This document shows, one piece after another, positions 2,947-51,387 of a stretch of DNA of 64,000 nucleotides (positions within the stretch are counted from its first letter, which is position 1; every line of letters begins with the position of its first letter). A program made the position numbers and the translations under genes. The notes beneath the pieces were generated by a model. The model searched no databases. It was not told where the DNA came from and worked only from the letters and a program-made list of their open reading frames with translations. This DNA comes from Escherichia coli. GTDB taxonomy: Bacteria; Pseudomonadota; Gammaproteobacteria; Enterobacterales; Enterobacteriaceae. The stretch lies in NCBI RefSeq assembly GCF_016903815.1, contig NZ_CP069972.1. One strand, written 5' to 3'.

Positions 2947-3761
2947 AAGCACTCACCTCTCTCCTTTTGCCAGTAATACTGCTTACTGGTTGTTCTTCTT
3001 CCCCTACCATCTCGCCAGGTGGTGTCAATACGCCACCACCTGACATTAATGCATGGCTTAAACCACGAAGTGAAAAGCCGGATAGTCTGTCAGAAACACG
3101 CTGGAAAATGCTGACAGACGCAGGTAAAACGCTTGGATTTCGTGGTGGCAAGGCTCAGCGTTCATGGGAGCTGATTCAGGCGCTCAACGCCCGGGAAAGC
3201 ACACTTAATGCCTTATACGATTTCCGGCCACTGATTAGCCCGGAAGGCTGGCTACCACCGGTTATTGATGAAGCACAGGACGTAGCTCATATCACGCCAG
3301 ATCAAATCCGGACCTCTTCCCGGGTCTGGACCATCATTCGCCCTGAACGCTTTGTCAGCAATCCACCGGGCTGGCGTGACTGGCTTCTCCGGGGGCTTTC
3401 AACAACAGCCACTCCGGGTACAGAAGGCAGCGTCGTTCCAGAAGACAGCGTGCAACGAAAAGTGTGGGAAACCGCATTACGGCAGGGATGGCAGGAAGGA
3501 AGACAAAACGCCGACCTGACGCTTGAAGCCAACCAGAAAACCCTCACCCGTGATTACCGGGGCATGATGCTGTACTCACTTCTCTGGCGTCAGGGCATGA
3601 TCACCCGTCCGGATGTTTCTGATCAAATGCAAACCGTTACAGGTGACGGGAAAAAACTGGTCACTGGAGATCGTGTTCGTCGCCTTAAAAATCATGCGGA
3701 ATTCAATCTTCAGAAATCTCACTGGCGTCCGCTTATAGGCACTGAAGGAGGCTCCCGATGA
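2943..3761 (+). CDS. traI: TraI-like lipoprotein (272 aa), Dot/Icm-type
   Basis: Lipobox ILLTGC; translationally coupled to traH and traJ; operon position. Confidence 0.6.
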   Translation: MKALTSLLLPVILLTGCSSSPTISPGGVNTPPPDINAWLKPRSEKPDSLSETRWKMLTDAGKTLGFRGGKAQRSWELIQALNARESTLNALYDFRPLISPEGWLPPVIDEAQDVAHITPDQIRTSSRVWTIIRPERFVSNPPGWRDWLLRGLSTTATPGTEGSVVPEDSVQRKVWETALRQGWQEGRQNADLTLEANQKTLTRDYRGMMLYSLLWRQGMITRPDVSDQMQTVTGDGKKLVTGDRVRRLKNHAEFNLQKSHWRPLIGTEGGSR

Positions 3762-4906
3762 ATATTCCTGATGAGTTTGGTCTTTTTCCGTTTCAGCGTT
3801 TCACTGCAGATGAACTACGGCATTTCTTTGTCTGGTGTGCCTCACATAAAGTCAGTGATGTGGATCTGACCGGCGGGTCACCTGTATCTGTCAGTCGCTT
3901 TGGCCGACGGGTGCGTTGTTCCAGTGCAACGTTACCAACCACACTCATGTCCTCCCTGATTGATGAACTGTTCGGTCGGGAAGTCATTCCCCGCGTTCTG
4001 GCAGGCAATCCGGTTGACAGGACGATACAGATTAACGGGGATGCATCCGGGCGCTATGGTCTTAAACGCGGAGAACGCATCCGGTTACGCTCTCACCTCA
4101 TTCAGGGCACATCTGGTGCGGAGGAGAAAGCAATCTCAATAACCATGCGTGTCATCCCGACAGAAATACCGGACATTCTCTCCATGAACATTGAACCAGA
4201 CCTGCTTGAAGCAATGGTCTGCAAAAGCGGTCTGGGATTTGTATGTGGTGAAACCGGGTCAGGAAAATCAACGCTGTGTTCAGCACTGTACCGTTACATT
4301 ATGGACAATTTCCCCGACGCCAAAATCGTGACATATGAAGACCCGGTGGAATATATCCTGGGAAATGAAAACGATCTGCTCCCACCGCATCAGGCAGAAA
4401 TCGGGCGTGATGTGGTCAGTTTTGCTGCCGGACTGCGTTCTGCTGTACGACGTAATCCCGAAATTATCGGTGTTGGTGAGATCAGGGATAACGAAACCGC
4501 CGACGCAGCGGTACAGGCAGGCAACACCGGGCATTACTGCCTGAGCACCATGCATACGAAATCTCCTGGTGAAACGCTGGCACGTCTTCTTGGGCTGTTT
4601 CCCCCTGTCATCAGGGATTCGATGGCCTGGGCTGTCCTGTCACTGTTGCAGTTCATTCTGGTTCAGGTTCTGGTCAGAACAAATGACGGTGGTCGTAAAG
4701 CCGTCCGGGAATATATCGTCATTAACGATGAGCTTCGCGACAATCTTTCCGGAATGCCGCATGCAGAGTGGGGGCATCACATTGATGCCATAATCCGGCA
4801 GGAGAAGCGCCGTATCCGGGACCAGATTCTGGAAATGTATATCCGGAATGAAGTTGACCGAAGAGAAGCGATTCTTTTTATCCCGCCAGGGGAGTTACGG
4901 TCATGA
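3758..4906 (+). CDS. traJ: TraJ, VirB11/DotB/PilT-like secretion ATPase (382 aa)
   Basis: AGGAGG RBS; Walker A GETGSGKST; size and position match IncI1 TraJ as I recall it. Confidence 0.85.
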   Translation: MNIPDEFGLFPFQRFTADELRHFFVWCASHKVSDVDLTGGSPVSVSRFGRRVRCSSATLPTTLMSSLIDELFGREVIPRVLAGNPVDRTIQINGDASGRYGLKRGERIRLRSHLIQGTSGAEEKAISITMRVIPTEIPDILSMNIEPDLLEAMVCKSGLGFVCGETGSGKSTLCSALYRYIMDNFPDAKIVTYEDPVEYILGNENDLLPPHQAEIGRDVVSFAAGLRSAVRRNPEIIGVGEIRDNETADAAVQAGNTGHYCLSTMHTKSPGETLARLLGLFPPVIRDSMAWAVLSLLQFILVQVLVRTNDGGRKAVREYIVINDELRDNLSGMPHAEWGHHIDAIIRQEKRRIRDQILEMYIRNEVDRREAILFIPPGELRS

Positions 4907-5193
4907 AAAGAGAAGGTTTCTGGCGATATGCAACACCGCCAGTCAACATCCAGGGCGTACCTCTGCCGTTCACCATGATTTATCTGTTTATATGCCCCTT
5001 TCCCTCCAAAACAACCTTCTGGATTTGCACCGGCATCATTTTATTTTTCGTTATTCTCGACCGTTCAGGCTGGACTGTCAGGACTATCTGTACACGCATT
5101 TTCAGCATTCTGAGAGGGGCCATCGCCTCCGGTCGTCCATGGTGGTATCGCCACCATACGGAATCACCACGAGACTGGACTGGCCTCGATTAA
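4903..5193 (+). CDS. traK: TraK-like small membrane protein (96 aa)
   Basis: GGGAG RBS; start overlaps traJ stop; two hydrophobic segments; operon position. Confidence 0.55.
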   Translation: MKREGFWRYATPPVNIQGVPLPFTMIYLFICPFPSKTTFWICTGIILFFVILDRSGWTVRTICTRIFSILRGAIASGRPWWYRHHTESPRDWTGLD

Positions 5194-5207
5194 ATTCTGG
5201 AGTCTTT

Positions 5208-5759
5208 ATGTCAGGTAAAAAAACTATCGTTACTCTGCTCCGGGTATCGCTACTGGCATGCCCGTTACTGTTCACGACACCATCGTTTGCAATGATCGAC
5301 ACGCCATCCGTGAAGGTCGGCTTTTCTCCTGAAGGAAGCGCATCCGCTCTGGTGCTTGACACAATCAACAGTGCGGAAAGCTCCATCAGGATGATGGCAT
5401 ATTCCTTCACCGACCCGGATGTAATGCATGCGCTGGCAAAAGCGAAAAAACGCGGAGTGGACGTCCGTATTGTTGTTGATGACAAGGGGAATACGAACCG
5501 GGCAAGTCAGGAAGCGATGAAATATATCAACCTGCTGGACATTCCTCTCCGGACTGTAGATGCCTTCCCCATCCATCACGACAAAGTCATCATTGTTGAC
5601 GGAAACACGGTTGAAACTGGCTCCTATAACTTCTCTCGTGCTGCTGCACGCAAGAATTCAGAGAATGTCGTTGTGCTCAAGAATATGCCGGATGTAGCCG
5701 CACAATATCTTGAACACTGGCAGGATCGCTGGAATAAGGGTACAGACTGGAAACCCTGA
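5208..5759 (+). CDS. nuc: Phospholipase-D-family (HKD) endonuclease, Nuc-like, secreted (183 aa)
   Basis: ATG 5208 in frame with track ORF 4848..5759; signal peptide; HKD motif HHDKVIIVDGNTVETGSYNFS; resembles plasmid Nuc (pKM101-type). Confidence 0.85.
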   Translation: MSGKKTIVTLLRVSLLACPLLFTTPSFAMIDTPSVKVGFSPEGSASALVLDTINSAESSIRMMAYSFTDPDVMHALAKAKKRGVDVRIVVDDKGNTNRASQEAMKYINLLDIPLRTVDAFPIHHDKVIIVDGNTVETGSYNFSRAAARKNSENVVVLKNMPDVAAQYLEHWQDRWNKGTDWKP

Positions 5760-5848: not shown

Positions 5849-8800
5849 ATGCCGTCTGTATCCCGCTACCGCACCTGGCTTGCCGTGCCTGCAGATGAAA
5901 TAGAAGATCTCAAAAAAGCACATCCCCCGATGAACGGGCACACGCCCGTCATCTGGGACAAGGAGCACAAACTCTGGTTCGCCCGCCCGGGGGCGGACCT
6001 GTCCAGGCTGGACCGCTGGCTGCCCCGGCCACAGGACGTCTCCATGAACGGCAGTGATCCGGTCACCGAGTTTGCCCAGGTTCTGGAGAATGCCGGACTG
6101 GTTCTGAAAGAACTGCCGGTCATGGACGGGAAAATCCACCGTGTCCCGACCGCCGATGACAAAAAAGGACAAAAAAGTGGCGCATATCGCGGATTCCTGG
6201 ACGGCAGACCTGCCGGCTGGTACAGGGATTATCGCAGCGCGGATGATTCGCCGATCACCTGGACCTTCTCCGGCGGAGAACAGACAGATCCCCGCGCAAG
6301 ACTCCACCTGAAAGCGCATTCAATGCAACGCAGGGAGGACGCGGAGCGGGAACTGAAAGCACAGTACAACCGACAGGCCGCGTATGCCCGCCGCTATGTC
6401 AACAAATGGCCGCAGGCCACAGCACATGAATACCTGACCCGGAAAGGCATTCAGGCTGCACCGGGGGTGCGGGTAAACAACAAAAATGAACTGGTTATTC
6501 CCTTCAGTAACCGTAACGGCGCGATACGCTCTTACCAGCGTATTCCGGTCACCGGGGGGAAGGATGCCCGCATCCTGAAAGATTCAGAGAAAACCGGTAA
6601 CTGGTTTGCGCTGGGCACACCGCGCAACGGTCAGCCGGTACTGTTTGCCGAGGGCTATGCCACTGCGGCCTCCCTGCACGAAGCCACGGGCCTTCCGGTA
6701 CTGATGACGGTGGATGGAGGCAACATGATTGCCGTTGCCGAAAATGCCCGGCAAAAGTGGACGCAAAGCCCCTTTATCTTCTGTGCCGACAACGATCATG
6801 CAATCCGGGTTAACAAAGGTATCGTCAGTGCAACAAAAGCCGCAGAACTGACAGGAGGAACGGTCATCTTTCCTGCGTTCACCGATGCCGAAAAAGCGCA
6901 GGGGCTGACCGATTTCAATGACCTGGACGCAAGCCGGGGACGGGCCGCTTTTCAGCATGTCATCAACGCCCAGTTAGAACACATCGGGGTTTCCACCCCC
7001 AACAGTAACACCCCGGAAATCCGCGAGGCACTGGTGATCGGCAACCTCGTTTTTACACCGGTCCACACTGAGGAAAAAACCATGACTCCGACAGAATATC
7101 CTGAAACATCACCCGATACAGGGCACAGCCATGACCAGGGACCTTCTCTGCCGTCCGCCACGCAGCAGGAACAACCAGCTGCTTCCAGCAGTAACATTGC
7201 TGATGAAACACAGTCATTTACCAGTCACGCCACTGAAAATAACGGCAAAGATGAGCGGCACGCTGATAACGTTCAGGCGCAAACGGAAAGCTCTGTAGTT
7301 CAGGACTCCCCTGCAGAATCACCGGCGTCCCCGGAAAGTACAACGGCATCTGCCCCTGATGAACCCGCTCATCCGGCGGAACCTCCGGAAAAAGTTGTCT
7401 CGGTGGCCACAGATAAAGACTGGCGTGAATTTGAAGCCGAACTGTCACAACCGGAAAAAAACGAGTCACAACAGGAATCCGGCACTTCACCTGAAATACC
7501 GGCCCCTGCTGCCGCCCCCGCATCCCCTGAAGACAGTCCCTCATCTGAAACCATGAATGAATCAGCCGAGCCATCACCTTCCCCTGATGCAGTCAAAGAG
7601 GAAATGACCGTGATGACGGAGCCTGATGACAAACAAAGCACCGGAATATCCCCGGATACTCCCCGGGAAGAGGCGGTCAACCATGTAACTGAAGACATTC
7701 CCCTTCAGCCAGAGCCGTTCCTTCCTGAGTCAGATGGCCCCGAAGAATACGAAAACTACAGCGCATATCAGGAGCTGATGAACAATGAAAATCCTGAGCA
7801 TCTGCAGGAAAACAGTGATATGCCGTCGCAACCGGACACAGACCACGTTCAGGCAGATGAGTCAGAACTTCAGGCCACAACAGATACTGCAGAACCGGCT
7901 GTCCGGGATGAACCCACTCCACAGCAACCTGTTCAGAGCACATCACCTTCTGATAATACTTCATCGTTTCTCGACAAAGCGCGTGGCTTTTTTACGCGTA
8001 AAAAAACGGATTCACAGGCACATGAGAACAGTGATCCCACGCCCTCAGCGGAAACCACGACGACTCCACCGATACCTGACAGTATTGTCTACGCCCCGGA
8101 ACGTTCTGATGCACCGATATCGCTCAACATGGACGAAATTCTTAAAGAGCTTGACTGGGAAAAACGAGCAGACAGAACCGTCCTGTACAAACTGGATGGC
8201 AAACCTGCCTTCATTGACCGGGTAAACCGGCTGGAAATGGTCAACGGTGCCAGCAATGACGATCGCAGCGTTCTGGCCGCACTTGCTGTGGCCACCAAAT
8301 TTTATGGGGGCGTCATAGAGCTGACGGGCAGTGATGCCTTTAAGCAAAAAGCAATGCAGTTGATTATCGAGCACAACATCGATGTCCGGATGAAATTGCC
8401 AGATCAACGGGCTGAACTAGAAAAATTACGCAAGGAAATGGCTGTCAGTAAGGATGCAGTTGTCACCCATCAGCCAACACCGGAACTTAACCGGAATACC
8501 CCAGAACAACCGGCTGTCCCTGACCCCGTTCAGGAAAAAGAAGCCACACAATCCCCGGCGTCCCCTGTTGCCCCTGAAGCATCAACCGTCAGCACCGCCT
8601 CTGCACCATCACCGGCTGAACCAGGCAAAACGGCAGATGTGGCACCAGACGAAGAACCACCAGGAAAACTTCGCCCGGGAGAGAGCGTGACTGCCGTACT
8701 GCACAATTTTGGTCGTGCTGAATATGCACCCGGCAAAGGAGAGAGTTTCTTTGTTGAGCTTAAAAACCGCAGTGGCAGCAAACTCTACTGGGGGGAACAA

Positions 8801-12956: not shown

Positions 12957-13660
12957 TGAAACCTGAAACAGAAATAGATGAAACCGGCAGCTTCGGTGAA
13001 CCCGAAGAGAAACCCGCCCCCTTCTGGAAACGTTCCGTCTGGGGGATATCTGTAGCAACATGGGGGCTATGTGCAGTCGTGTTGCTCGCAGCCATATGGT
13101 ATCTGTTCCTGAGAGCGCCATCGGAAACAGGCATGCCTCCGTTTAATGATGCGGATGCTGGCGTACAGACCTGGCAAACCACACAAGAATCATCACCTTC
13201 TGTTCAGTCCACTGAGACTATGACTGTCCGGACAGGAGAAGATATGAGCCAGCTTGCCCGGGATGTAAAAACAGAGCTGGATAACCGCGATGAAAAAATT
13301 CAGGCAACACTGAATATGCTTCACGACAGCATTAACAAGCTGGGCGAAGCTATAAAAAAGGATGAAGAATACGCACAGGAAACGCGCCGTCAGCTGGATG
13401 ATATCCGGAGCCGCCTGAACGGAATAATGACACAGAAAAGCGTCACTGAATCCTCTTCCACACCGCATCCAGCAAAGAAAAAAACGTCGTCTGTTCTTAA
13501 CGGAATGAAAATCATGTCGATGGAAACTGGTATGGCCTGGATTCGCTGGCAGGGTAGTACCTGGGCTGTCAGAGAAGGTCAGACGCTGGGCAATGTGGTG
13601 ATCCAGCGGATTGATCCGACTACCCGGACCATCATCACCAGTGCAGGGACGTTACGCTGA
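12956..13660 (+). CDS. traP: TraP-like T4BSS protein (234 aa)
   Basis: ATGA overlap with traO; single TM, coiled-coil-like region; operon position. Confidence 0.55.
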   Translation: MKPETEIDETGSFGEPEEKPAPFWKRSVWGISVATWGLCAVVLLAAIWYLFLRAPSETGMPPFNDADAGVQTWQTTQESSPSVQSTETMTVRTGEDMSQLARDVKTELDNRDEKIQATLNMLHDSINKLGEAIKKDEEYAQETRRQLDDIRSRLNGIMTQKSVTESSSTPHPAKKKTSSVLNGMKIMSMETGMAWIRWQGSTWAVREGQTLGNVVIQRIDPTTRTIITSAGTLR

Positions 13661-14187
13661 TGAACATGGATGCCCTGACCGCCATTGAGAACTTTGCCAG
13701 CAGTATTTTCAGTGCCGGAATGGATTTCCTGTTTACCTGGGGAGAATTCATCGGGGTGATCAGCATGATTACCCTGTTTGCCCGCGCCCGTTCAGCCGGT
13801 CCGGTAAAAATGTCTCCCGGAAAATTTATTGCGGGGATGTTAACCAGCTGCATGCTCGTATCACTCCCGGCAATGATTAACGCCGGAGGCGTACAAATGG
13901 GATTCAGGGCTGACTCATTTGGCCCGATTGCATATGTACAACCTCAGACGTTTGGCGCTGCTGCTGGCGCAGCAAATGCAGTTCTGTCGCTGGCCAAGCT
14001 GGCCGGTGTGGGATTTGTCATGAACGGGATATCCATCTGGCGCAAGGCCGGACTCGATGGACATACCGCACTGAGTGCCAGTGAATCCGTCAGTAAGGGA
14101 AACGTCAAATTTATTGCCGGCGTCCTGCTGGTCTTTATCGATCGTGTCCTCAATGCCCTGCTGGCAAGCATTGGAATCGTCTTCTGA
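13660..14187 (+). CDS. traQ: TraQ-like integral membrane protein (175 aa)
   Basis: ATGA overlap; multiple hydrophobic helices; operon position. Confidence 0.55.
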   Translation: MNMDALTAIENFASSIFSAGMDFLFTWGEFIGVISMITLFARARSAGPVKMSPGKFIAGMLTSCMLVSLPAMINAGGVQMGFRADSFGPIAYVQPQTFGAAAGAANAVLSLAKLAGVGFVMNGISIWRKAGLDGHTALSASESVSKGNVKFIAGVLLVFIDRVLNALLASIGIVF

Positions 14188-25464: not shown

Positions 25465-25551
25465 GTTAGTTGAAAAGAGATTTCCTCCGGTCAGGGCCAC
25501 CCACTCTGTAACGGAACAGTAAAAAAACCGACCTCACCAGTCGGTTTTTTT
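25465..25551 (+). ncRNA. Candidate ~85-nt small RNA (repeat copy 2 plus terminator)
   Basis: TATTAT -10-like box just upstream; repeat core then strong terminator 25521-25551. Confidence 0.3.
25521..25551. terminator. Bidirectional Rho-independent terminator
   Basis: A7-AACCGAC-loop-GTCGGTT-T7. Confidence 0.65.
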
Positions 25552-25704
25552 ACATCTGTTGTTTCTCAAAATCCGTCCGACATGCCCGTCACACCGGGGA
25601 AACTCATGCTCTGAATCAGAACCAACCATCTCAACTTTGCCGTCTCCTGAAAAAACTGGCACATTCAGTTCGATAACTACCCATAAATACAGAGAGAAAA
25701 TCCG

Positions 25705-26027: not shown

Positions 26028-26180
26028 TTAACGTTTAACTTCGTAGGCTAACGTTGCCACAAGCACTGTGTTTCCCTGCTGGAGCCGGAGTCCGCAAAGC
26101 GAATCCCTCACCATCCAGACAAAACACAGAATCGTCACACAGATGACGATTAACATCATTAAAAACGTTCGCTGTGGCAT
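26028..26180 (-). CDS. pndA: Hok/Gef-family type I toxin, PndA-like (50 aa)
   Basis: Not in ORF track; translation MPQRTFLMMLIVICVTILCFVWMVRDSLCGLRLQQGNTVLVATLAYEVKR with GGAGG RBS; single TM plus conserved Cys typical of Hok family; hairpin 25996-26018 downstream. Confidence 0.8.
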   Translation of the reverse strand: MPQRTFLMMLIVICVTILCFVWMVRDSLCGLRLQQGNTVLVATLAYEVKR

Positions 26181-26212
26181 CATAGCCCCTCCATTGCCTT
26201 ACGGCGGTTATC

Positions 26213-26295
26213 GGGCTACTATAATGTTGTCTAGGCATTACAGTAGAGCCCTTGGTTGATTGATAAAAAAATCTCCAGGGGCTTTCTGCTGTATA
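26213..26295 (+). ncRNA. Candidate Sok/PndB-like antisense RNA region over the toxin leader
   Basis: TATAAT-like box at 26220-26225; lies antisense to the expected mok/pndC start upstream of pndA; exact ends not determined. Confidence 0.35.
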
Positions 26296-26510
26296 CCGTC
26301 CACAAAACGCTTTCGGCATACAGCCTCAAGCGCCCGCAGCTATTCTAACGACTTTCGTATCGGTAACAATCCTTTTAACCAGCCCCACACATCTTTCGGA
26401 CATGGTGAGTACAAAAGGCTGCGCTCTCGAACATTTGACATTGAAAATGATTCAGGTGACAGCCTGAATGTAGCAGGAGTCCCCGTCCTTCTGGCATAGA
26501 AGATGTCAAC

Positions 26511-32539: not shown

Positions 32540-32572
32540 GGCCGCGCCGGATTCTGGCGCGGCCTTTTTTTT
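32540..32572. terminator. Bidirectional terminator between convergent trbC and nikB
   Basis: GGCCGCGCC-loop-GGCGCGGCC then T8. Confidence 0.65.
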
Positions 32573-35270
32573 AACCTGGAGAAGGCGGTTCCCAGCGTTT
32601 ATCCTGCTCCGGCGGAGGCAGTGATGCGTCATCGTTGCTGTTCGCCGCGATATAATCGCGGTAGTAGCGTTCACTTCCTTCACGGTGATGATCCACGTCC
32701 GGTCGCGTAATCCTGTAGTCTTCGTGACCGGTACGGCCTGTCACATTATGCCAGGCAACCATTTCAGCAAAGACCTGGTTAAATTGTTTGTCGTTTCCTT
32801 CTGGTTCAAAACCCATGCGTGGATCACGCCCGAATAATACCGGTGCAATCAAATCCAGTTTATCTGCCAGCGCATTGCGGTCATGGTGATTACGGAAAAC
32901 AACCCTGTCACCATAATCCGTACAGACAAACTCTCCCGTCCGACGATCACGGAAACGAACACTCCCGTTCTTCTGCAAACGGGCCTCGAGATCACCGGTA
33001 TTACCGTATACCGGCGTTCCGCCCGGTTCACAAAGCACGACACAGCGGTCTGTTGTCGTTGTGCGTGACTTATCTTTACGGCGATCGCGATAATCCCAGC
33101 CTCTCAGCTGCGATACAGCAGCCCTGTCTCCCTGAGCAGCCTGAATTTCGACCCACTGACGGTAAGAGGGTGGATACCACTTCCCGTCAGCAATAAGTTT
33201 CTGCCGCTCATTCCTGATGTCTTCTTTCAGCCTGATCAATGCCTGCATTCGCTGAACTTCTGCAATGTGATAATGCAGCTTACGTAATGCCGGATCATCG
33301 TACTGCGCACGAATGTGTGACTTCCGCAGACGGCATGCCTGATGAATTTCCCGACAACGTTCCCCATAACGCAGATCTGGTTTACGCCATTGTTCACGCC
33401 ATGCCAGATAGCGGGCACGCAGGTCAGCACGGGCCTCAGCTCTGGCTTCACGTCGCTGCCGGCGCAGCATTGGGTCACGTTTACTGCTGACCCCGTACCT
33501 GTCACTGACAGCCAGCTCCGGGTTATAGCGACTTTCAGGTTGCACCCTGTCAAACAAATCTGCTGGGGCACTCACAAAAGGTCCGGCCTGTGGCTCTGCA
33601 CGCCCCAGAGTCAGATCAGGATGAATGCTGCTGGCCTTCACCGGCGTTTGCTCATGATTAAAGGCATCAACGACAACAAGCCCGTGATGTTGTTTCTGTA
33701 GCATCAGTCCCTGTTGTGCAAACAACTCATGACAACGCTGCCAGGTAAACTCACCCTGTGTGATCATTTCTTCAATCTGAGGGCTACAATGGCTGATGCT
33801 GTATCCCCACAGACTTTCTTTGTCAGAAAACAGTTCGCGTTTGATAGCCCCCTGCGGCCCCGTACCTGTACGCATACGGTGCCATTCTTTATCGGTCGCA
33901 GGACAGCTCTCCATACGACGACCACGGAAGCGTTCTGTTGGCGTAACCTGGAGGAAAATATCTGTTGGTACAGGCTGCCAGCCACCATCGAGTTGATTCA
34001 CATTGTCGAGCGTCAGCAGTGACCATACGCTGTCAGCACGAACGGGAGTCTGGTTATGATCATAACCGTCACAGATAACCAGGTGACCATGCTGAACACG
34101 CATCCATAATCCCGCTTCAGCCAGTGTGCGGTGAATAGCCTGGCAGTTTTCCAGCCGTCCTTCCCGTGCCATTTCCGGCAGACGTTCTCCAAGATGACGA
34201 CAGGCATACTGCTGCAGACTTTCTGTTTCAGCGATTTTTTCCGGGCGAACATCAGCTGCAATGAAGTCCGGATTATAGCGTCCTGGTGCTTCCACCTGGC
34301 TGAAAATGTCTTTTGGTACTGGCGTGTAGTCACCCATTTTTTTCATGAGTTTTTCTGCACACCAGGAGGGACCAAACGAGTCAAGCTGTACACCTTCCCT
34401 GTTGCGATCCCAGCCATCCATCACCAGAAATTTTCCGTCCATCTGAGACAGGTACAGACCATCTTCCGCAAGACGACGATGCAGGGATAACCAGTCATTT
34501 ACAGGTTCACTGCGTAAACCAGCGACCGCTGTCTGCGCGACATACTCGCGAAAAGTTTGTTTTTTTCCGCGTGTCCAAGCGTTCTGGCGATCACGTTCAA
34601 CGGCAGTTTTGCGAACGATACGATTTCCCGGCGCATGGACCCAGCAACCGTTATCCGGAGCAAAACCATGCTTCAGTTCAAGCTCACGGCAGGCACGACT
34701 GAGTTTTTCCTGACTCCATGATAATCGGTTCAGATAACCCGTTTCAGGGTGTACCCGGTTAACAGCCACATGGACGTGCAGATTATCTGTATCAGTATGC
34801 ACGGCAGAGACATACTGATGGTCGGCAAGGCCGAGTGATTTCAGCGTATGACGTACACTGTCATAAATCTGTTCCGGACGCGGGCTTTCATGTGACTGCC
34901 AGGAAAGGATGTAGTGAAAAACAGGATCAGTGTCATCTTTTGCATAGTGTGCCTGCCGGGCAATGTACTCCATATCTGCAGCGGCAGTTTCAAGAGAAGT
35001 ACAGTTATGAAAGCAGGTGACACCATAAAAGTTGACCCATTCGCAGCCGTCCTTCATGACATCAACCAGCGCCACGAATGACTCATTTCGAAGACGTGTC
35101 GCATAATCAACAAGGCGACTGAAACGGCTTCGGTGCGGTTGTTCAGCCTGCGAAGAAGAAGATAAATCCAGTTCCTCATCGGTCATGTCATCCCGGACAG
35201 AGACGTAGGATACCAGGTCTTCGAACGAAGACTTGCCGTCCCTTCTCTTTTTCGGAATGACTGCATTCAC
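32571..35270 (-). CDS. nikB: NikB, MobP-type relaxase (899 aa)
   Basis: Histidine triad ...NLHVHVAVNRVHPETGY; 899 aa; immediately downstream of nikA/oriT. Confidence 0.9.
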   Translation of the reverse strand: MNAVIPKKRRDGKSSFEDLVSYVSVRDDMTDEELDLSSSSQAEQPHRSRFSRLVDYATRLRNESFVALVDVMKDGCEWVNFYGVTCFHNCTSLETAAADMEYIARQAHYAKDDTDPVFHYILSWQSHESPRPEQIYDSVRHTLKSLGLADHQYVSAVHTDTDNLHVHVAVNRVHPETGYLNRLSWSQEKLSRACRELELKHGFAPDNGCWVHAPGNRIVRKTAVERDRQNAWTRGKKQTFREYVAQTAVAGLRSEPVNDWLSLHRRLAEDGLYLSQMDGKFLVMDGWDRNREGVQLDSFGPSWCAEKLMKKMGDYTPVPKDIFSQVEAPGRYNPDFIAADVRPEKIAETESLQQYACRHLGERLPEMAREGRLENCQAIHRTLAEAGLWMRVQHGHLVICDGYDHNQTPVRADSVWSLLTLDNVNQLDGGWQPVPTDIFLQVTPTERFRGRRMESCPATDKEWHRMRTGTGPQGAIKRELFSDKESLWGYSISHCSPQIEEMITQGEFTWQRCHELFAQQGLMLQKQHHGLVVVDAFNHEQTPVKASSIHPDLTLGRAEPQAGPFVSAPADLFDRVQPESRYNPELAVSDRYGVSSKRDPMLRRQRREARAEARADLRARYLAWREQWRKPDLRYGERCREIHQACRLRKSHIRAQYDDPALRKLHYHIAEVQRMQALIRLKEDIRNERQKLIADGKWYPPSYRQWVEIQAAQGDRAAVSQLRGWDYRDRRKDKSRTTTTDRCVVLCEPGGTPVYGNTGDLEARLQKNGSVRFRDRRTGEFVCTDYGDRVVFRNHHDRNALADKLDLIAPVLFGRDPRMGFEPEGNDKQFNQVFAEMVAWHNVTGRTGHEDYRITRPDVDHHREGSERYYRDYIAANSNDDASLPPPEQDKRWEPPSPG

Positions 35271-37159: not shown

Positions 37160-37495
37160 TTTCCCGGAGGAGCGAAGCTCCTTCTGCCGTCCGGGTCTTC
37201 GGGGATTTCCCCGCAGTGGACCTTTCCGACGGGGGACGCTCACCACGTCACGGGGCAGTTGTCCGGGGGCAGACGCAAAAGTTTTTGACGCCTGCGGCAA
37301 AAAGTTTTGTGGCTGGTACATCTCTCCCCTGGACGACTGAAACGGGATGTGGTCATGTATGTACCCCCGGAAAGTCCGTCTGCGGAGAACAGGCCGCAGT
37401 GCGGCGGCAGACAGGCAGAGACAGCTGCGCCATCAGGCGCAGTGGCCTTACACACCGTAAGGTGTGCAGGGAGCGCCGCATACGGCGCGACTGAA
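37160..37495 (-). repeat. Family-A GC-rich structured repeat, copy 1 (Frpo/ssi-like single-strand promoter candidate)
   Basis: ~335 bp highly similar to 40553-41055 and 46898-47400; many internal inverted repeats. Confidence 0.6.
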
Positions 37496-40552: not shown

Positions 40553-41055
40553 CCCCCGGAGGGGCGAAAGCCCCTTCTGCCGTCCACTTCTTCGGGGTTT
40601 CTCCCCGCAGTGGACCTTTCCGATGGGGCAGCGACTGCCACGGCACGGGGCAGTTGTCCGGGGGCAGACGCAAAAGTTTTTGACGCTTGCGGCAAAAAGT
40701 TTTGTGGCTGGTACATCTCTCCCCTGGACGGCTGAAACGTGTTGTGGCCGCTTCAGCCCCCGGAAAGTCCACAGCGGGGAAACAGGCCGCAGGGGGGGCG
40801 GCGGAAGGGCAGACAACTGCGCCATCAGGCGCAGTTTCCTTACACACCGTCAGGTGTGCAGGGAGCGCAGGTCACGGCGCGACAGAGGCGGCGCGACCGG
40901 AACGGTCGCTGCAAGCCTGGTTTTTCAGACATCGGACCGTAGCGGCAGCCCGAAACCGCGCCAGCGGGTTCGGCGGAGACTGGCGGGTGCGCCAGCAGCT
41001 GCCTGTCGGAGTCGGGCCTGACGACCGGATGCCGCCAGGCAGCCGGGAGCCGAAG
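40553..41055 (-). repeat. Family-A repeat, copy 2 (Frpo/ssi-like)
   Basis: ~500 bp; near-identical blocks shared with copies 1 and 3. Confidence 0.6.
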
Positions 41056-41737: not shown

Positions 41738-41761
41738 TCCCGAATCCTCCATAGTCACATG

Positions 41762-42095
41762 TTCTGCGACACCGGGCGGTGCCGTGCCTCCATCTTTGCC
41801 GGGCCTGCAGGGATGCAAGGGCGCAAGGGAAGCCGCAGCCCGACGCACACGGCTGGCGGGAGTTGGAGGGTGAGACCGCGAAATCTGAGCGGGTGAACGA
41901 CCGGAAAATCACGGCAGACGGGAAGGAGGGACCGGGTGACCGCAGCGGTTCATCTTACCTTGCATCCCGCCCGCAGAAGCCCGGCTACGATGGAGGCACG
42001 GCACAGCCCGCACACGACACGGCGGCCACATAACTGAAAACCCACAAGGCCATGCCCCGCATGGCCGGGTAAAAGCGGAGCCGGCGGCGACGTCC
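41762..42095 (-). repeat. Family-B GC-rich structured repeat, copy 1 (Frpo/ssi-like), upstream of ardA
   Basis: ~335 bp near-identical to 51055-51387. Confidence 0.55.
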
Positions 42096-46304: not shown

Positions 46305-46832
46305 TCAGAACGGGATGTCGTCTGAAAACCCGTAATCCTCCCCCTCCGGCGGTTGCGGCTGAGGCTCTGGCTGCGCGGCCTTACGTCCACGGCCTTTCGT
46401 TTTCGCGCCACCTTTTTTCGTCGCGTCAGCACTCTGTGGCTGCCCATTCTGCTGAGGCTTCGGTTGCGCCTGAGCGTTCTGCTGTGGTGCACGTCCCAGC
46501 ATCTGCACGGTGCCCGTGGTCTTAACAAGAATTTCAGTGACGTAACGGGTGATACCGTTATCTTCCCAGCTACGGGTGCGAAGCTGACCTTCGATGTAGA
46601 CCTGCGCACCCTTGCGCAGATATTCACCTGCCACTTCCGCGAGCTTGCCGAACAGCACCACGCGGTGCCATTCCGTCTGCTCCCGCATCTCCCCCGTCTG
46701 TTTGTCACGCCAGCTTTCTGATGTGGCCACCTGCAGGTTTGCCACTGCGCCCCCGTTGGGGATGTAACGGACTTCCGGATCATTGCCCAGACGCCCGACG
46801 AGGATGACCTTGTTGATACCACGTGCACTCAT
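46305..46832 (-). CDS. ssb: Plasmid single-stranded DNA-binding protein (175 aa)
   Basis: OB-fold N-terminus [18 protein letters not shown]; Q/P-rich linker; acidic C-terminal DDIPF tail. Confidence 0.9.
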
Positions 46833-46897
46833 AAGAACCTCCTGACTGAAAGATGTGAGATAAACCGGATACCGGCGACGGGACGTTCATGTGCCCC

Positions 46898-47400
46898 TTC
46901 AGAGGAGCGAAAGCTCCTCCTGCCGTCCACTTCACAGGGGTTTCTCCCCGCAGTGGACCTTTCCGATGGGGGCCCGTTTACCGCCTCACGGGGCAGCTGT
47001 CCGGGGGCGGACGCAAAATTTTTTGCCGGGTTCATGGCTAAAAATTTTGTGGCCGGTGCATCTCACCCTGGACAGATGGAACGGGAGGGGGTTACGTCTG
47101 CCCCCCGGAAAGTCCACAGCGGGGAAACAGGCCGCAGGGGGGGCGGCAGGAGGGAGGACTGCTGCGCCATCAGGCGCAGTTTCCTCACACACCGTCAGGT
47201 GTGCAGGGAGCGCAGGTCACGGCGCGACAGGGGCGGCGCGACCGGAACGGTCGCTGCAAGCCCGGGTTTTCACGCATCGGACCGTAGCGGCAGCCCGAAA
47301 CCGCGCCAGCGGGTTCGGCGGAGACTGGCGGGTGCGCCAGCAGCTGCCCGTCGGAGTCGGGCCTGACGACCGGATGCCGCCAGGCAGCCGGGAGCCGAAG
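46898..47400 (-). repeat. Family-A repeat, copy 3 (Frpo/ssi-like), upstream of ssb
   Basis: ~500 bp near-identical to copy 2; right edge is where the intron begins. Confidence 0.6.
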
Positions 47401-47406
47401 TGGGCG

Positions 47407-49747
47407 GTGCGACAGGAAGTCGCTTAACGTATTGTTTTACATTGATAAAACCAGCTATCCCATTAGCTGTAGCCTACCGGGACAGGCGTTGCCGGCAACG
47501 GCGGGGTCTGAAGCTCCCGGGACAACGAGAGCCGGGCGTCAGCCCGGGTAATGCCCCGTGAGGGGCTTTACCTTGCTGCAAGCATCATGCGGCAGGAGAG
47601 CAAGGCTGGTCAGAAGGGTTAACACATGTGAACTGTTGATAAACACCGTTATCGGCAACAGGCCAAAGATGCTGACAGGCCTGAACCAAAAGGTACGGGG
47701 TCCGGTTGCTACCTCGCGCACAGGGAGCACATGGGCGCAGAGACCCCCGGTGAAGAGACAGAACCCGCCCTGACCCTCTGTATGTTAAGCGGAACCTGGT
47801 AAACCCGTATCGCTGCCTCACAGGCAGGTGAACCGCAAGGAACACTGTTAGCGGTGCGGGCATAGGAGGACGGAAAAAGCGAATGCCCGGCTGTAATAAC
47901 CGGGATACGGGGCAGGTTCCCCGACGCGAAAGCGGGCAGACTTCCGTCTGGTCTTTAATTGCATGAAAAGCTGTAAAGCAGTCAAAAGGATATCAGCGAG
48001 ATGAATACACACATCAGTGTGTCCACGATACCCCACCCGACAGGCTGGCACACCATAAACTGGAAAGCATGCCATGCCCGGGTGCGAAAGCTACAGTTAC
48101 GGATTGCAAAGGCAACCCGACAGCAACAATGGCGGCAGGTCAGAGAACTACAGCGCATCCTCACCCGCTCATTCTCCGGCAAAGCCGTGGCTGTCAGGCG
48201 TGTAACTGAAAATACCGGTAAAAGGACACCCGGTATTGACGGAAAAATATGGCACACACCGAAGGAGAAATGGGAAGGAATATGCAGCCTGAATCTGTGT
48301 GGTTACAGGCCACAGCCACTACGGCGAATACATATCCCAAAATCAAACGGCAAAACGCGACCGCTGGGCATACCCACAATGAGGGACCGGGCCATGCAGG
48401 CACTGTGGCTGCTGGCTCTGGAACCCGTATCCGAGACCACTGCTGACCATAACAGCTATGGTTTCAGACCAATGCGCAGCACGCATGACGCCATTGAGTC
48501 CATTTTTCTGCGGATGAGCCAGAAAGTATCGCCCAAATGGATACTGGAGGGCGATATTAAAGGGTGCTTCGATAACATCAGCCATGACTGGCTGCTTTCC
48601 CATATTCCGATGGACAGGAGACTGCTTAAAAAATGGTTGAAAGCAGGTTACATGGAAAGAGGCGTGTTTAACCATACGAACAGCGGGACACCGCAGGGAG
48701 GCATCATATCCCCTGTTCTCGCCAACATGGCTCTGGACGGACTGGAGAAGGAACTGATGCAAACGTTCAGGAAAAGTGGTTATCACAGTGCAAAGCACCA
48801 GGTGAATTATGTGAGATATGCTGATGATTTCATCTGTTCAGGCAGCTCCCGTGAATTGCTGGAAAATGAGGTCAGACCACTGATTGCAGCTTTCATGCGC
48901 GAACGAGGGCTGGAACTGTCGGAAGAAAAAACAGCGATCACACATATAGATAAAGGCTTCGACTTTTTAGGGCAGAACGTCAGGAAGTACAACGGTAAAA
49001 TGCTGATTAAACCGTCGAAGAAAAACCTGAAGAACTTCCTCTGTAAAGTCAGAGAAATAATTAAACGCAATCCGACGCTCCCGGCATGGAAACTGATAGG
49101 CCAGCTAAACCCGGTGATCCGGGGATGGGCTACCTATCACCGACACGTCGTGGCGAAAGAAACATTTAATTATGTCGACACCCAAATCTGGCGAGCTATA
49201 TGGCGATGGTGTGTAAGACGGCATCCCCGGAAAGGATTGCGGTGGATCGCCGGACGATACTTCTCCTTTGAAGGCAGGCGCTGGATCTTTAAAGCCATAA
49301 CCCCGGAAGGGAAAATTCTGACACTCTTCCGGGCAATGGAAACACCGATAAAGCGCCATATAAAAATCAAAGGCGAAGCAACACCATACACCCCCGGAAT
49401 GGAAATCTACTTTGAACGTCGTCTGGATCTAATCTGGAAAGGCAAATCAAAGAAGATGAAGACAGTAGTTCAACTCTGGAAGAGGCAGGGGAAACACTGT
49501 CCGCAGTGCGGACAACTCATAACCAACCAGACCGGATGGAATATACATCACCGGATCAGGAAAGTTATGGGCGGCAGTGACGAACTGACCAATCTCGAGT
49601 TGTTACATCCGAACTGCCACCGACAGTTACACAGCAGGGAAGCCGGTGCTCACCGAAAGCACTTATAAAGGCTTGAGCGGAGTGCGGGGAAACTCGCACG
49701 CTCCGTTCTTAGGGGGCGGCGGCGCAGCAATGTGCCGCTGCTACCCG
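47407..49747 (+). mobile_element. Group II intron (boundaries approximate)
   Basis: 5' GTGCG at 47407; ORF in domain IV; domain V-like 34-nt hairpin 49675-49708; domain VI-like stem to ~49747. Confidence 0.8.
48001..49668 (+). CDS. Group II intron-encoded reverse transcriptase/maturase with HNH endonuclease (555 aa)
   Basis: RT motifs incl. YADD; maturase X region; C-terminal HNH (HCPQCG...HHRIRKVMGG...HPNCHRQLH). Confidence 0.9.
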   Translation: MNTHISVSTIPHPTGWHTINWKACHARVRKLQLRIAKATRQQQWRQVRELQRILTRSFSGKAVAVRRVTENTGKRTPGIDGKIWHTPKEKWEGICSLNLCGYRPQPLRRIHIPKSNGKTRPLGIPTMRDRAMQALWLLALEPVSETTADHNSYGFRPMRSTHDAIESIFLRMSQKVSPKWILEGDIKGCFDNISHDWLLSHIPMDRRLLKKWLKAGYMERGVFNHTNSGTPQGGIISPVLANMALDGLEKELMQTFRKSGYHSAKHQVNYVRYADDFICSGSSRELLENEVRPLIAAFMRERGLELSEEKTAITHIDKGFDFLGQNVRKYNGKMLIKPSKKNLKNFLCKVREIIKRNPTLPAWKLIGQLNPVIRGWATYHRHVVAKETFNYVDTQIWRAIWRWCVRRHPRKGLRWIAGRYFSFEGRRWIFKAITPEGKILTLFRAMETPIKRHIKIKGEATPYTPGMEIYFERRLDLIWKGKSKKMKTVVQLWKRQGKHCPQCGQLITNQTGWNIHHRIRKVMGGSDELTNLELLHPNCHRQLHSREAGAHRKHL

Positions 49748-49946
49748 ACCAATAAAAGACAGCCAGAAACGGTGACAGTGTCACGGAATATCACACCTGT
49801 TCCCTGCATACAGCCATACACTACCTTCTGACCGGAAAGCCGGGCCGGCAGCGCCGCAGGCGCTGCACCCCGCGTTTCCGGCAGGCGTCAGCCTGCCAGG
49901 GGTTTTCGCGCGGGCTGACAGGCGGCCTCCACCGCCTGCCCCTGTA

Positions 49947-50138
49947 TCACCTGTTTCTGCTGCCCTGAAGGATGTAGTGACCGCCCAGGAAAACCGCCTG
50001 CTGATTCGCCACAAAATCGCAGATTTCATCAACAATCTGCGCGGTGGTGAGCGGTTTCTGCCCCATTTCACGACGCCGCGCATTAATCACGGCCCTGTAA
50101 TTACGCAGAATTTCGCGGGTTTCTGTGCTGATATTCAT
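49947..50138 (-). CDS. Hypothetical small protein (63 aa)
   Basis: Start overlaps stop of upstream ORF (coupling); 3' end runs into the repeat flank, so it may be truncated. Confidence 0.3.
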   Translation of the reverse strand: MNISTETREILRNYRAVINARRREMGQKPLTTAQIVDEICDFVANQQAVFLGGHYILQGSRNR

Positions 50139-50557
50139 GACATCGTCTCCCCGTCCAGCGCCTGCAACACAACGTCCATTGCTTCGAGTTCCTCCCTGAC
50201 GAATGCGTCACCGTCGCCCCCGTTCTCACTCCCGACGGCATACAGGCGCTTCATTTCACTACCTGCCAGCGCCATCACTTTTTCCAGCATCACCGCCGGG
50301 ACTGTCACATGACGGCTGGCGCGCTTTTCTTCCATCAGTTCATTGACAATATCGGAAACAACTCTGTCACATGCGCCATATACAAAAGCATCGTCCAGCC
50401 GCTGCATGACGGTTTCCAGCTCATCGTCTGACAGGTTCCAGTCCTGGGCTATGTGACGCACATCCCCACGGGTCAGCACCACGGCAAAAACGCATTCACT
50501 GTCCGGCACGTCTGTATCCAGTACATCGCGGATGATTTCTTTAACAGTACAGTACAT
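50135..50557 (-). CDS. Hypothetical leading-region protein (140 aa), paralogue of 52260..52694
   Basis: Shared blocks with the 144-aa ORF (LSD[DH]E.[IE]TV...RL[DE]D; VTVPA); downstream of klcA-like gene. Confidence 0.5.
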   Translation of the reverse strand: MYCTVKEIIRDVLDTDVPDSECVFAVVLTRGDVRHIAQDWNLSDDELETVMQRLDDAFVYGACDRVVSDIVNELMEEKRASRHVTVPAVMLEKVMALAGSEMKRLYAVGSENGGDGDAFVREELEAMDVVLQALDGETMS

Positions 50558-50603: not shown

Positions 50604-51029
50604 TCAGTCAAGTGCCGCGTAAATCGCGTTGCATTCGGGGTGAAATTCGATGTGGCTCCACAACTGCGCATCACGCATCCTGTACAGGTGTGTCAACCCT
50701 GCATCCCCGCTGTCGTGGTACAGCCACAACTGGCGGTTAATCACAAGGGAGGTAAGGATGATGCCTGCGGCATCAGCGCTCACGGTACGGTCAAACCAGT
50801 TTGCACCGTTCACCATGTGGAAACGGTCGCCATCCGGCATCATGTAACCGCCACCGTCCGGCAGGCGGATGAAGTGCCAGAATCCGCCTTCATATTCCGG
50901 CATCATTTTTTTCGCCAGCGCGTATACAGACGCTTCGGCATACAGAAAATCCAGGCCAAACAGGTAAGGCAGAAAAGACAGACGGTCGCACTCTTCAACG
51001 TTCAGAGTGACAGGTTTCGCATATTGCAT
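50604..51029 (-). CDS. klcA: KlcA/ArdB-family antirestriction protein (141 aa)
   Basis: Conserved blocks [44 protein letters not shown] as in KlcA/ArdB. Confidence 0.75.
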
Positions 51030-51054
51030 GATGTTTTCCTCCGTTGTTCACATA

Positions 51055-51387
51055 TTCCGCGACACCGGGCGGTGCCGTGCCTCCATCTTTGCCGGGCCTG
51101 CAGGGTTGCAAGGGCGCAAGGGAAGCCGCAGCCTGACGCGCACGGCTGACGGGAGTTGAAGGGTGAGACCGCGAAATCTGAGCGGGTGAACGACCGGAAA
51201 ATCACGGCAGACGGGAAGGAGGGACCGGGTGACCGCAGCGGTTCACCTTACCTTGCAACCCGCCCGCAGAAGCCCGGCTACGATGGAGGCACGGCACAGC
51301 CCGCACACGGCGCTGAGGCCACATAACTGAAAACCCACAAGGCCATGCCCCGCATGGCCGGGTAAAGCGGAGCCTGCGGCGACATCC
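51055..51387 (-). repeat. Family-B repeat, copy 2 (Frpo/ssi-like), upstream of klcA-like gene
   Basis: Near-identical to 41762-42095. Confidence 0.55.

Follow-up and report, generated by a model that had tools for sequence, protein, structure and literature searches.

A probable mobile IIB1-type group II intron beside a promoter repeat in the leading region of an IncI-type plasmid

Two described bacterial group II introns, both of subgroup IIB1 with reverse transcriptases (RTs) of the chloroplast-like 1 (CL1) lineage, provide a background for the element considered here, i.e. the 2343-nt sequence at 47407-49749, + strand, of a 64,000-nucleotide stretch (hereafter the window) of Escherichia coli contig NZ_CP069972.1 (assembly GCF_016903815.1). 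The first, Th.e.I3/T.el4h of Thermosynechococcus elongatus, for which cryo-electron microscopy structures are available (6ME0/6MEC), has been assigned to IIB1/CL1, and the layout of the exon-binding sites (EBSs) EBS2a, EBS2 and EBS1 in IIB1 introns has been described (PMC8643678). The second, the highly mobile EcI5 from the E. coli O157:H7 plasmid pO157, relies mainly on RNA-DNA pairing for target recognition, including pairing with the intron-binding site (IBS) IBS2a at position -14 (PMC8643678). A further precedent, Ll.LtrB, is carried by lactococcal conjugative elements within their relaxase gene (PMC4256276).

The element in the window is very probably a mobile group II intron, intact and autonomous, that belongs to subgroup IIB1, encodes a CL1-type RT with an HNH endonuclease domain, travels as a selfish passenger of an IncI-type conjugative plasmid and arrived at its present position by retrohoming. 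The intron is already known, in that the annotation ltrA is attached to it in about a thousand E. coli and Klebsiella plasmids, with mentions in plasmid-epidemiology papers; a literature search for a database name for it, or for work linking it to the Frpo/ssi promoter elements of plasmids, found only passing mentions. The present analysis adds its exact boundaries, the proposed IIB1/CL1 assignment, a motif common to the tail of the ssi/Frpo repeat and the manB gene, and the finding that the site occupied in the window departs from the consensus.

Structure and relationships of the intron

The element begins with GTGCG at 47407-47411 (GUGCG in the RNA) and ends at 49749 with CUACCCGAC, of which the final letters are CCCGAC, in agreement with the 5' GUGYG and 3' AY boundary sequences of group II introns. 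A full-length match to the Rfam domain I model RF02012 (group-II-D1D4-7) is present in the 5' ribozyme part at 47451-47600 (121.8 bits, gathering score 34, E 3.5e-25), and a match to RF00029, which covers domains V and VI, at 49673-49749 (60.1 bits, gathering score 40). In the latter alignment the domain V hairpin, carrying the AGC catalytic triad, occupies exactly 49675-49708, the position at which a preliminary description of the stretch had placed a domain-V-like hairpin, and domain VI (49711-49747) contains a bulged A at 49743, the predicted branch point, 7 nt from the 3' end of the intron. Domains II and III are visible only as plausible stems in a minimum-free-energy (MFE) fold; the architecture of domain I was taken from the Rfam models, since folding the first 600 nt globally by MFE gave no reliable result for this domain.

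Domain IV contains an open reading frame (ORF; 48001-49668, + strand) for a 555-residue intron-encoded protein (IEP), with the Pfam domains RVT_N, RVT_1, GIIM and HNH, corresponding to RT, maturase (X), DNA-binding and HNH endonuclease regions. The IEP scores 385 bits with TIGR04416, the NCBIfam equivalog model for group II RT/maturases (cut-off 300), and both its YADD motif (residue 273) and its HNH motif are intact. The proposal in the preliminary description of a group II intron with an RT/maturase/HNH ORF and foldable ribozyme domains is thus borne out at both termini, in domain I and in domains V/VI.

When the flanking segments 47207-47406 and 49750-49949 are joined, the resulting 400-mer matches many intron-less IncI-type plasmids without a break and at 100% identity, i.e. 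the exons are contiguous at the predicted junction. Insertion was therefore exact, between G47406 and C49750, with neither target-site duplication nor loss; the GTGCG start proposed earlier is correct, but its coordinate, given as 47401-47407, is 47407 and not 47401. Insertion is likewise exact, relative to empty alleles, at the more common of the sites used by this intron (type II, see below). Exact insertion without duplication or loss is the signature expected of group II retrohoming.

The nearest solved relative of the IEP is the T.el4h RT (6ME0_C; E 1.1e-177, residues 12-553), the alignment being near full-length and including the C-terminal HNH-type region, whereas RTs of other lineages are far weaker matches, e.g. 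LtrA (6e-46) and GsI-IIC (7e-41). It is this relationship, together with the predicted EBS1/EBS2/EBS2a layout, that places the intron in subgroup IIB1 and the CL1 lineage, by comparison with solved relatives rather than by phylogeny. The inferred layout of EBS2a, EBS2, EBS1 and IBS3 also resembles that of Th.e.I3/T.el4h (PMC8643678). By contrast, the host of the latter is a cyanobacterial chromosome rather than an enterobacterial plasmid and its target sequence is different, the direct comparison of the two introns being one of their IEPs. As far as a comparison drawn from the literature and not from sequences allows, EcI5 appears similar in being a plasmid-borne E. coli intron of IIB1 type, with an endonuclease (En)-containing RT and target recognition in which RNA-DNA pairing, including that at -14, would dominate (PMC8643678); it is, however, a distinct element at a distinct insertion site. 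Ll.LtrB similarly rides and spreads with a conjugative element, but it belongs to the IIA/mitochondrial-like (ML) type and lies in the sense orientation within an essential transfer gene, such that its splicing is required for conjugation, whereas the window intron is intergenic and antisense to its neighbours (PMC4256276).

The same 2343-nt element, with 21 differences, is present in F33:A-:B- plasmids such as pHN7A8 (L003), where it has been described as a 'putative group II intron downstream of ycjA' (PMC6052338, PMC10654068). Its position there is homologous to that in the window, i.e. between a 63-residue ORF (ycjA) and the repeat tail, but the pHN7A8 copy occupies the common type II site, GGTGCGC^CCGG (the caret marks the insertion point here and below), as opposed to the IncI type I site, GTGGGCG^CAAT, of the window.

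Insertion sites and target recognition

With a 2360-nt query, 1067 PLSDB records were found to match the intron (526 from Escherichia and 491 from Klebsiella), 999 of them at a minimum of 99% identity; in PLSDB/RefSeq plasmid records it is annotated as ltrA. Its 5' junction at a repeat tail was located at 1118 places in 1008 records, with the common type II junction in 840 and the type I junction of the window in 136; the window-type 3' junction is present in 131. Site contexts, collected from exact matches to the IEP sequence as well as from the plasmid hits, are of four kinds. Type II repeat tails, GGAGCCGAAGGTGCGC^CCGGCAGACAG, are found in IncF and some IncI plasmids, and type I repeat tails, GGAGCCGAAGTGGGCG^CAATAAAAG, include that of the window. 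The third kind, GAGCCGGTGGTGCGT^CTGAAC, lies within manB, at codons TEPVVR^LNVE and with the intron in the sense orientation, in six chromosomes, while the fourth, GAAGCCGAAGATGCGC^TATCC, is a tesA-ybbN-like spacer in one chromosome. Empty canonical type II sites are present at 5403 places in 2635 plasmid records.

In the loci concerned (L011, L015, L017, L019, L023 and L024; intron at locus positions 3407-5749) manB, which encodes a phosphomannomutase of capsule/O-antigen loci, is split by the intron and is called as a truncated gene of 437-438 amino acids. The genes downstream differ between these genomes, so manB seems to be a second natural homing site that has been invaded repeatedly.

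More than one copy can be present per molecule, each at a different copy of the repeat, with two in one contig (L012/L013) and insertions at three places in NZ_CP020519. Two alleles of the intron, distinguished by 21 positions, are each found in type I, type II and manB sites. A de novo group II intron insertion has, moreover, been reported at the same position in the IncI plasmid p15ESBL, where it arose in two replicate populations during 15 days of experimental evolution (PMC10104558). From the near-identical copies at different sites, the multi-copy plasmids, the occurrence of both alleles at each type of site and this published insertion, the element is evidently mobile. Near-identical plasmids occur with and without it (PMC6052338, and matches to empty sites), as expected of a dispensable passenger.

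The sequences common to the occupied sites are A at -14, GCCG(A/G)(A/T) at -13 to -8, G at -7, (G/A)TGCG(C/T) at -6 to -1 and C or T at +1, with little else shared. The preferred target thus appears to be A-GCCGRW-G-RUGCGY^Y, which is present in the repeat tail of many IncF/IncI plasmids and in the conserved manB codons TEPVVR^LNVE. Candidate pairing partners can be identified within the intron by complementarity. GCGCAC at intron positions 310-315 (47716-47721), in the loop of a local hairpin, is the probable EBS1, complementary to the IBS1 sequences GUGCGC/GUGCGU/AUGCGC of the type II, manB and tesA-ybbN sites. (A)UCGGC at 245-250 (47651-47656) is the probable EBS2, complementary to GCCGA(A) at -13 to -8, and a U at 243/244, two to three nt upstream of UCGGC, is a candidate EBS2a that would pair with A(-14) in all of the site families, EBS2a and EBS2 together spanning 47649-47656; at the manB site, G-U and A-U changes preserve pairing. 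The +1 base (IBS3) is C in the type I, type II and manB sites and T in the tesA-ybbN site. The four site families fit EBS1, EBS2 and EBS2a with C/T at +1, with the qualifications that the IBS1 of the window is out of register and that EBS3 was not located.

In the window the target on the + strand (47393-47406) comprises A47393 as IBS2a, GCCGAA (47394-47399) as IBS2, G47400 and TGGGCG (47401-47406) as a non-consensus IBS1, with C49750, the first base of the 3' exon, as IBS3. The window copy occupies a minority variant of the site, albeit one used repeatedly, both intron alleles occurring in junctions with type I sequence on each side. Copies in type I and type II sites reveal no compensating EBS changes, identical introns being present in both. 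CGCCC (intron positions 360-364), considered as an alternative EBS1 able to pair with GGGCG of the window, was rejected, since chance matches to a 5-mer are to be expected within domain I and none of the other sites fits this one.

Two collected loci carry variant junctions. That in L004 (NZ_CP087632.1; intron at locus positions 6101-8443) is hybrid, combining the type I 5' exon GTGGGCG^ with the type II 3' exon ^CCGGCAGAC, which points either to a recombination event involving copies of the intron from different plasmids or to yet another variant of the site. In L026 (NZ_CP131687.1; 5' junction at locus position 3030) 2 nt are missing from the IBS2 region of the occupied tail, GGGGAGCCAGGTACGC^, and IBS1 contains a mismatch; either the intron tolerates such changes or the exon has decayed since it was invaded.

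Class C (IIC) introns lack EBS2 and an En domain and insert directly after a stem-loop. The present intron is similar to these, including the IIC-attC introns, in being inserted beside strongly structured, repeated, non-coding DNA outside genes, but differs from them in its predicted EBS2-IBS2 pairing, full-size IIB-type ribozyme and endonuclease domain. Stem-loop targeting of the IIC kind was rejected given the HNH domain and EBS2-IBS2 pairing, the distance of ~250 nt to the main hairpin and the use of unstructured coding targets, i.e. manB.

The proposed route to the window site is as follows. Excised intron RNA, bound to its own RT, would pair via EBS2a, EBS2, EBS1 and EBS3 with A-GCCGAA-G-TGGGCG^C on the + strand, would then reverse-splice between 47406 and 49750, and would be copied into DNA. 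Once in place, the window copy would have its RNA supplied by + strand transcription of the double-stranded plasmid.

The landing site and alternative readings

The window derives from an IncI-type conjugative plasmid, with a MOBP relaxase gene at 32571-35270 (- strand), and its 34.9-57.2 kb region is collinear with an IncI-gamma/K1 plasmid, in the order nikB-nikA, pndC, psiA, psiB, ParB-like, DUF905 gene, ssb, intron, 63-residue ORF, DUF1380 gene, antirestriction gene and DNA methylase. The intron is on the + strand and its ssb, ParB-like, DUF1380 and antirestriction neighbours are all on the - strand, as the preliminary description had it.

Three copies of a repeat are present on the + strand. 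Copy A3 (46902-47400) lies upstream of ssb (46305-46832, - strand; NF010292, 385.8 bits), the first gene of the operon assigned to it. Its + strand DNA folds into a long hairpin at ~46916-47150 (z = -9.6), and segments of it are 77-94% identical to regions of plasmid F upstream of ssb and of DUF932-operon genes, the homology being partial. From the three copies, the fold, this homology and published work on class 1 single-stranded-DNA (ssDNA) promoters (PMC12672017, PMC10104558, PMC3817090), the repeat can be assigned to the ssi1-3/Frpo family, with A3 as ssi3, the predicted promoter of the ssb operon. Copy A2 (40559-41055) has the tail GCCGAAGGGTGTCC, a poor target for the intron, and is empty; copy A1 (37167-37491) is partial, lacking the target-bearing tail.

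The earlier view that retrohoming had occurred next to the ssb promoter region is therefore supported, both by the exactness of insertion relative to empty sites and by the identification of the repeat as an ssi3/Frpo-type element. The statement that copy A3 itself is interrupted is inexact; within the window, detectable A2/A3 homology stops at 47400, six nt short of the insertion point. Similarly, the flank homology proposed to resume after ~49750 is weak in the window, where the sequence 3' of the intron resembles the A2 flank only slightly, although in IncF plasmids the repeat does extend at least 40 nt beyond the insertion point. The insertion is ~250 nt outside the ssi3 hairpin, in a non-coding spacer downstream of the antirestriction (klcA-like) operon, so no gene is interrupted, and the promoter repeat is left intact.

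Transcription from ssi promoters uses the transferred (T) strand (PMC12672017, PMC10104558); with the leading genes on the - strand, the T strand is the + strand, i.e. the sense strand of the intron. The intron is therefore not transcribable during single-stranded entry and is absent from early leading transcripts; as proposed previously, its RNA is obtainable only from a + strand transcript. A different group II intron, with a 633-residue RT (WP_000936285.1; L027, NZ_CP020519.1, 23653-25554, - strand), separates ssb from the promoter repeat in an IncF plasmid. It shares the orientation of the leading genes, so that, unlike the window intron, it could have its RNA made from the ssDNA promoter when the plasmid enters a cell. 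NZ_CP020519.1 carries both this intron and three copies of the window intron.

Several observations weigh against the interpretation of the window copy as an active element that arrived by ordinary retrohoming. A consensus scan of 46700-50200 revealed no sigma-70-like + strand promoter upstream of the intron. In the canonical register just one of six positions of the window IBS1, TGGGCG, is paired with the predicted EBS1. If EBS1 is slid by one base (C309-C315), GUGGGCG pairs at six of seven positions, with the IBS2 distance and the +1 C retained, but this explanation of the type I site is an ad hoc rescue. Finally, the intron observed to insert de novo in p15ESBL would be that of the window judging from plasmid type and position, the intron sequence not being in the paper (PMC10104558).

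An unlikely alternative is that the intron exploits conjugation, its ribonucleoprotein reverse-splicing into the T strand, close to the ssDNA promoter, while this strand enters the recipient in single-stranded form, with synthesis of the complementary strand priming that of the complementary DNA, such that both the site and the orientation are adapted to transfer. Consistent with this proposal, for each of the plasmid copies seen the IBS-bearing strand is the one transferred, all plasmid copies are at tails of ssDNA-promoter repeats in leading regions, and the invaded plasmid in the evolution experiment had been introduced into a host already bearing the intron (PMC10104558). However, orientation is set by a single repeated target sequence, so the plasmid copies amount to one observation, and the chromosomal insertions in manB and the tesA-ybbN spacer are explained by ordinary retrohoming into double-stranded DNA. 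The HNH endonuclease domain, too, is intact. Nor is the target appreciably more exposed in the folded T strand, where its predicted probability of being unpaired is 0.39-0.42, compared with 0.33-0.35 overall.

It is very improbable that the intron, as the preliminary description suggested, is silent or acts as an antisense barrier, whether as a relic or through co-option to insulate the antirestriction operon from the ssi3-ssb operon; while its orientation antisense to all neighbouring genes, the lack of a + strand promoter in the consensus scan, the poor fit of the window IBS1 and the altered transfer rates caused in some hosts by mutations around ssi3 (PMC10104558) might be so read, neither the ORF nor any catalytic motif is damaged, copies at other sites have an identical sequence, silence is contradicted by near-identical copies at four or more kinds of site, by two to three copies per plasmid, by two alleles distributed across sites and by the published insertion (PMC10104558), and nothing supports a barrier, the promoter repeat itself being intact and the presence or absence of the intron among near-identical plasmids (PMC6052338) indicating no conserved function. 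Retrohoming of a mobile passenger is thus the reading preferred here.

Classic plasmid F (NC_002483.1; L028) has no more of the repeat than the apex of the hairpin and one segment from the middle, at 8175-8480 and 13559-13867. The target-bearing repeat tail was sought there and not found, so F should not be a target for the intron. The window also has a second family of direct repeats, at 41755-42054 and 51048-51347 (96% identical over 300 nt), one copy of which lies a short distance 5' of the gene for the klcA-like antirestriction protein (50604-51029). The family fits the class 2 ssDNA promoter hairpins described 5' of klcA and ardA (PMC12672017). Outside the leading region, Rfam matches to the sok antitoxin RNA (26178-26335, - strand, 134 bits) and AgrB antisense RNA (25466-25553, + strand, 55 bits) indicate a predicted hok/sok-type post-segregational killing locus.

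Consequences for plasmids and their hosts

The target of the intron, as proposed here, is defined by a short RNA-guided motif, which is located at the tails of leading-region repeats in IncF/IncI plasmids and in C-terminal codons of manB. An F-type leading region that includes the intron is found within a chromosome-sized record (L018; CP186411.1, 5.4-Mb chromosome), and integration of a Klebsiella pneumoniae plasmid adjoining ltrA has been reported (PMC12403872). Being 2.3 kb long and identical on plasmids and chromosomes, the copies can mediate both plasmid-plasmid and plasmid-chromosome recombination, and for the latter the intron may act as portable homology. Mutations at ssi3, which the intron adjoins, alter the rate of transfer, so work on leading-region expression should record whether the intron is present.

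Were the intron to exploit conjugation in the manner described above, each naive plasmid entering an intron-bearing cell would be an opportunity for invasion, and the tail of the promoter repeat would be a plasmid-borne copy of the manB homing site, shuttling the intron between hosts. The occurrence of the same motif in plasmid repeat tails and in manB means that epidemic resistance plasmids can seed the intron into surface-polysaccharide genes.

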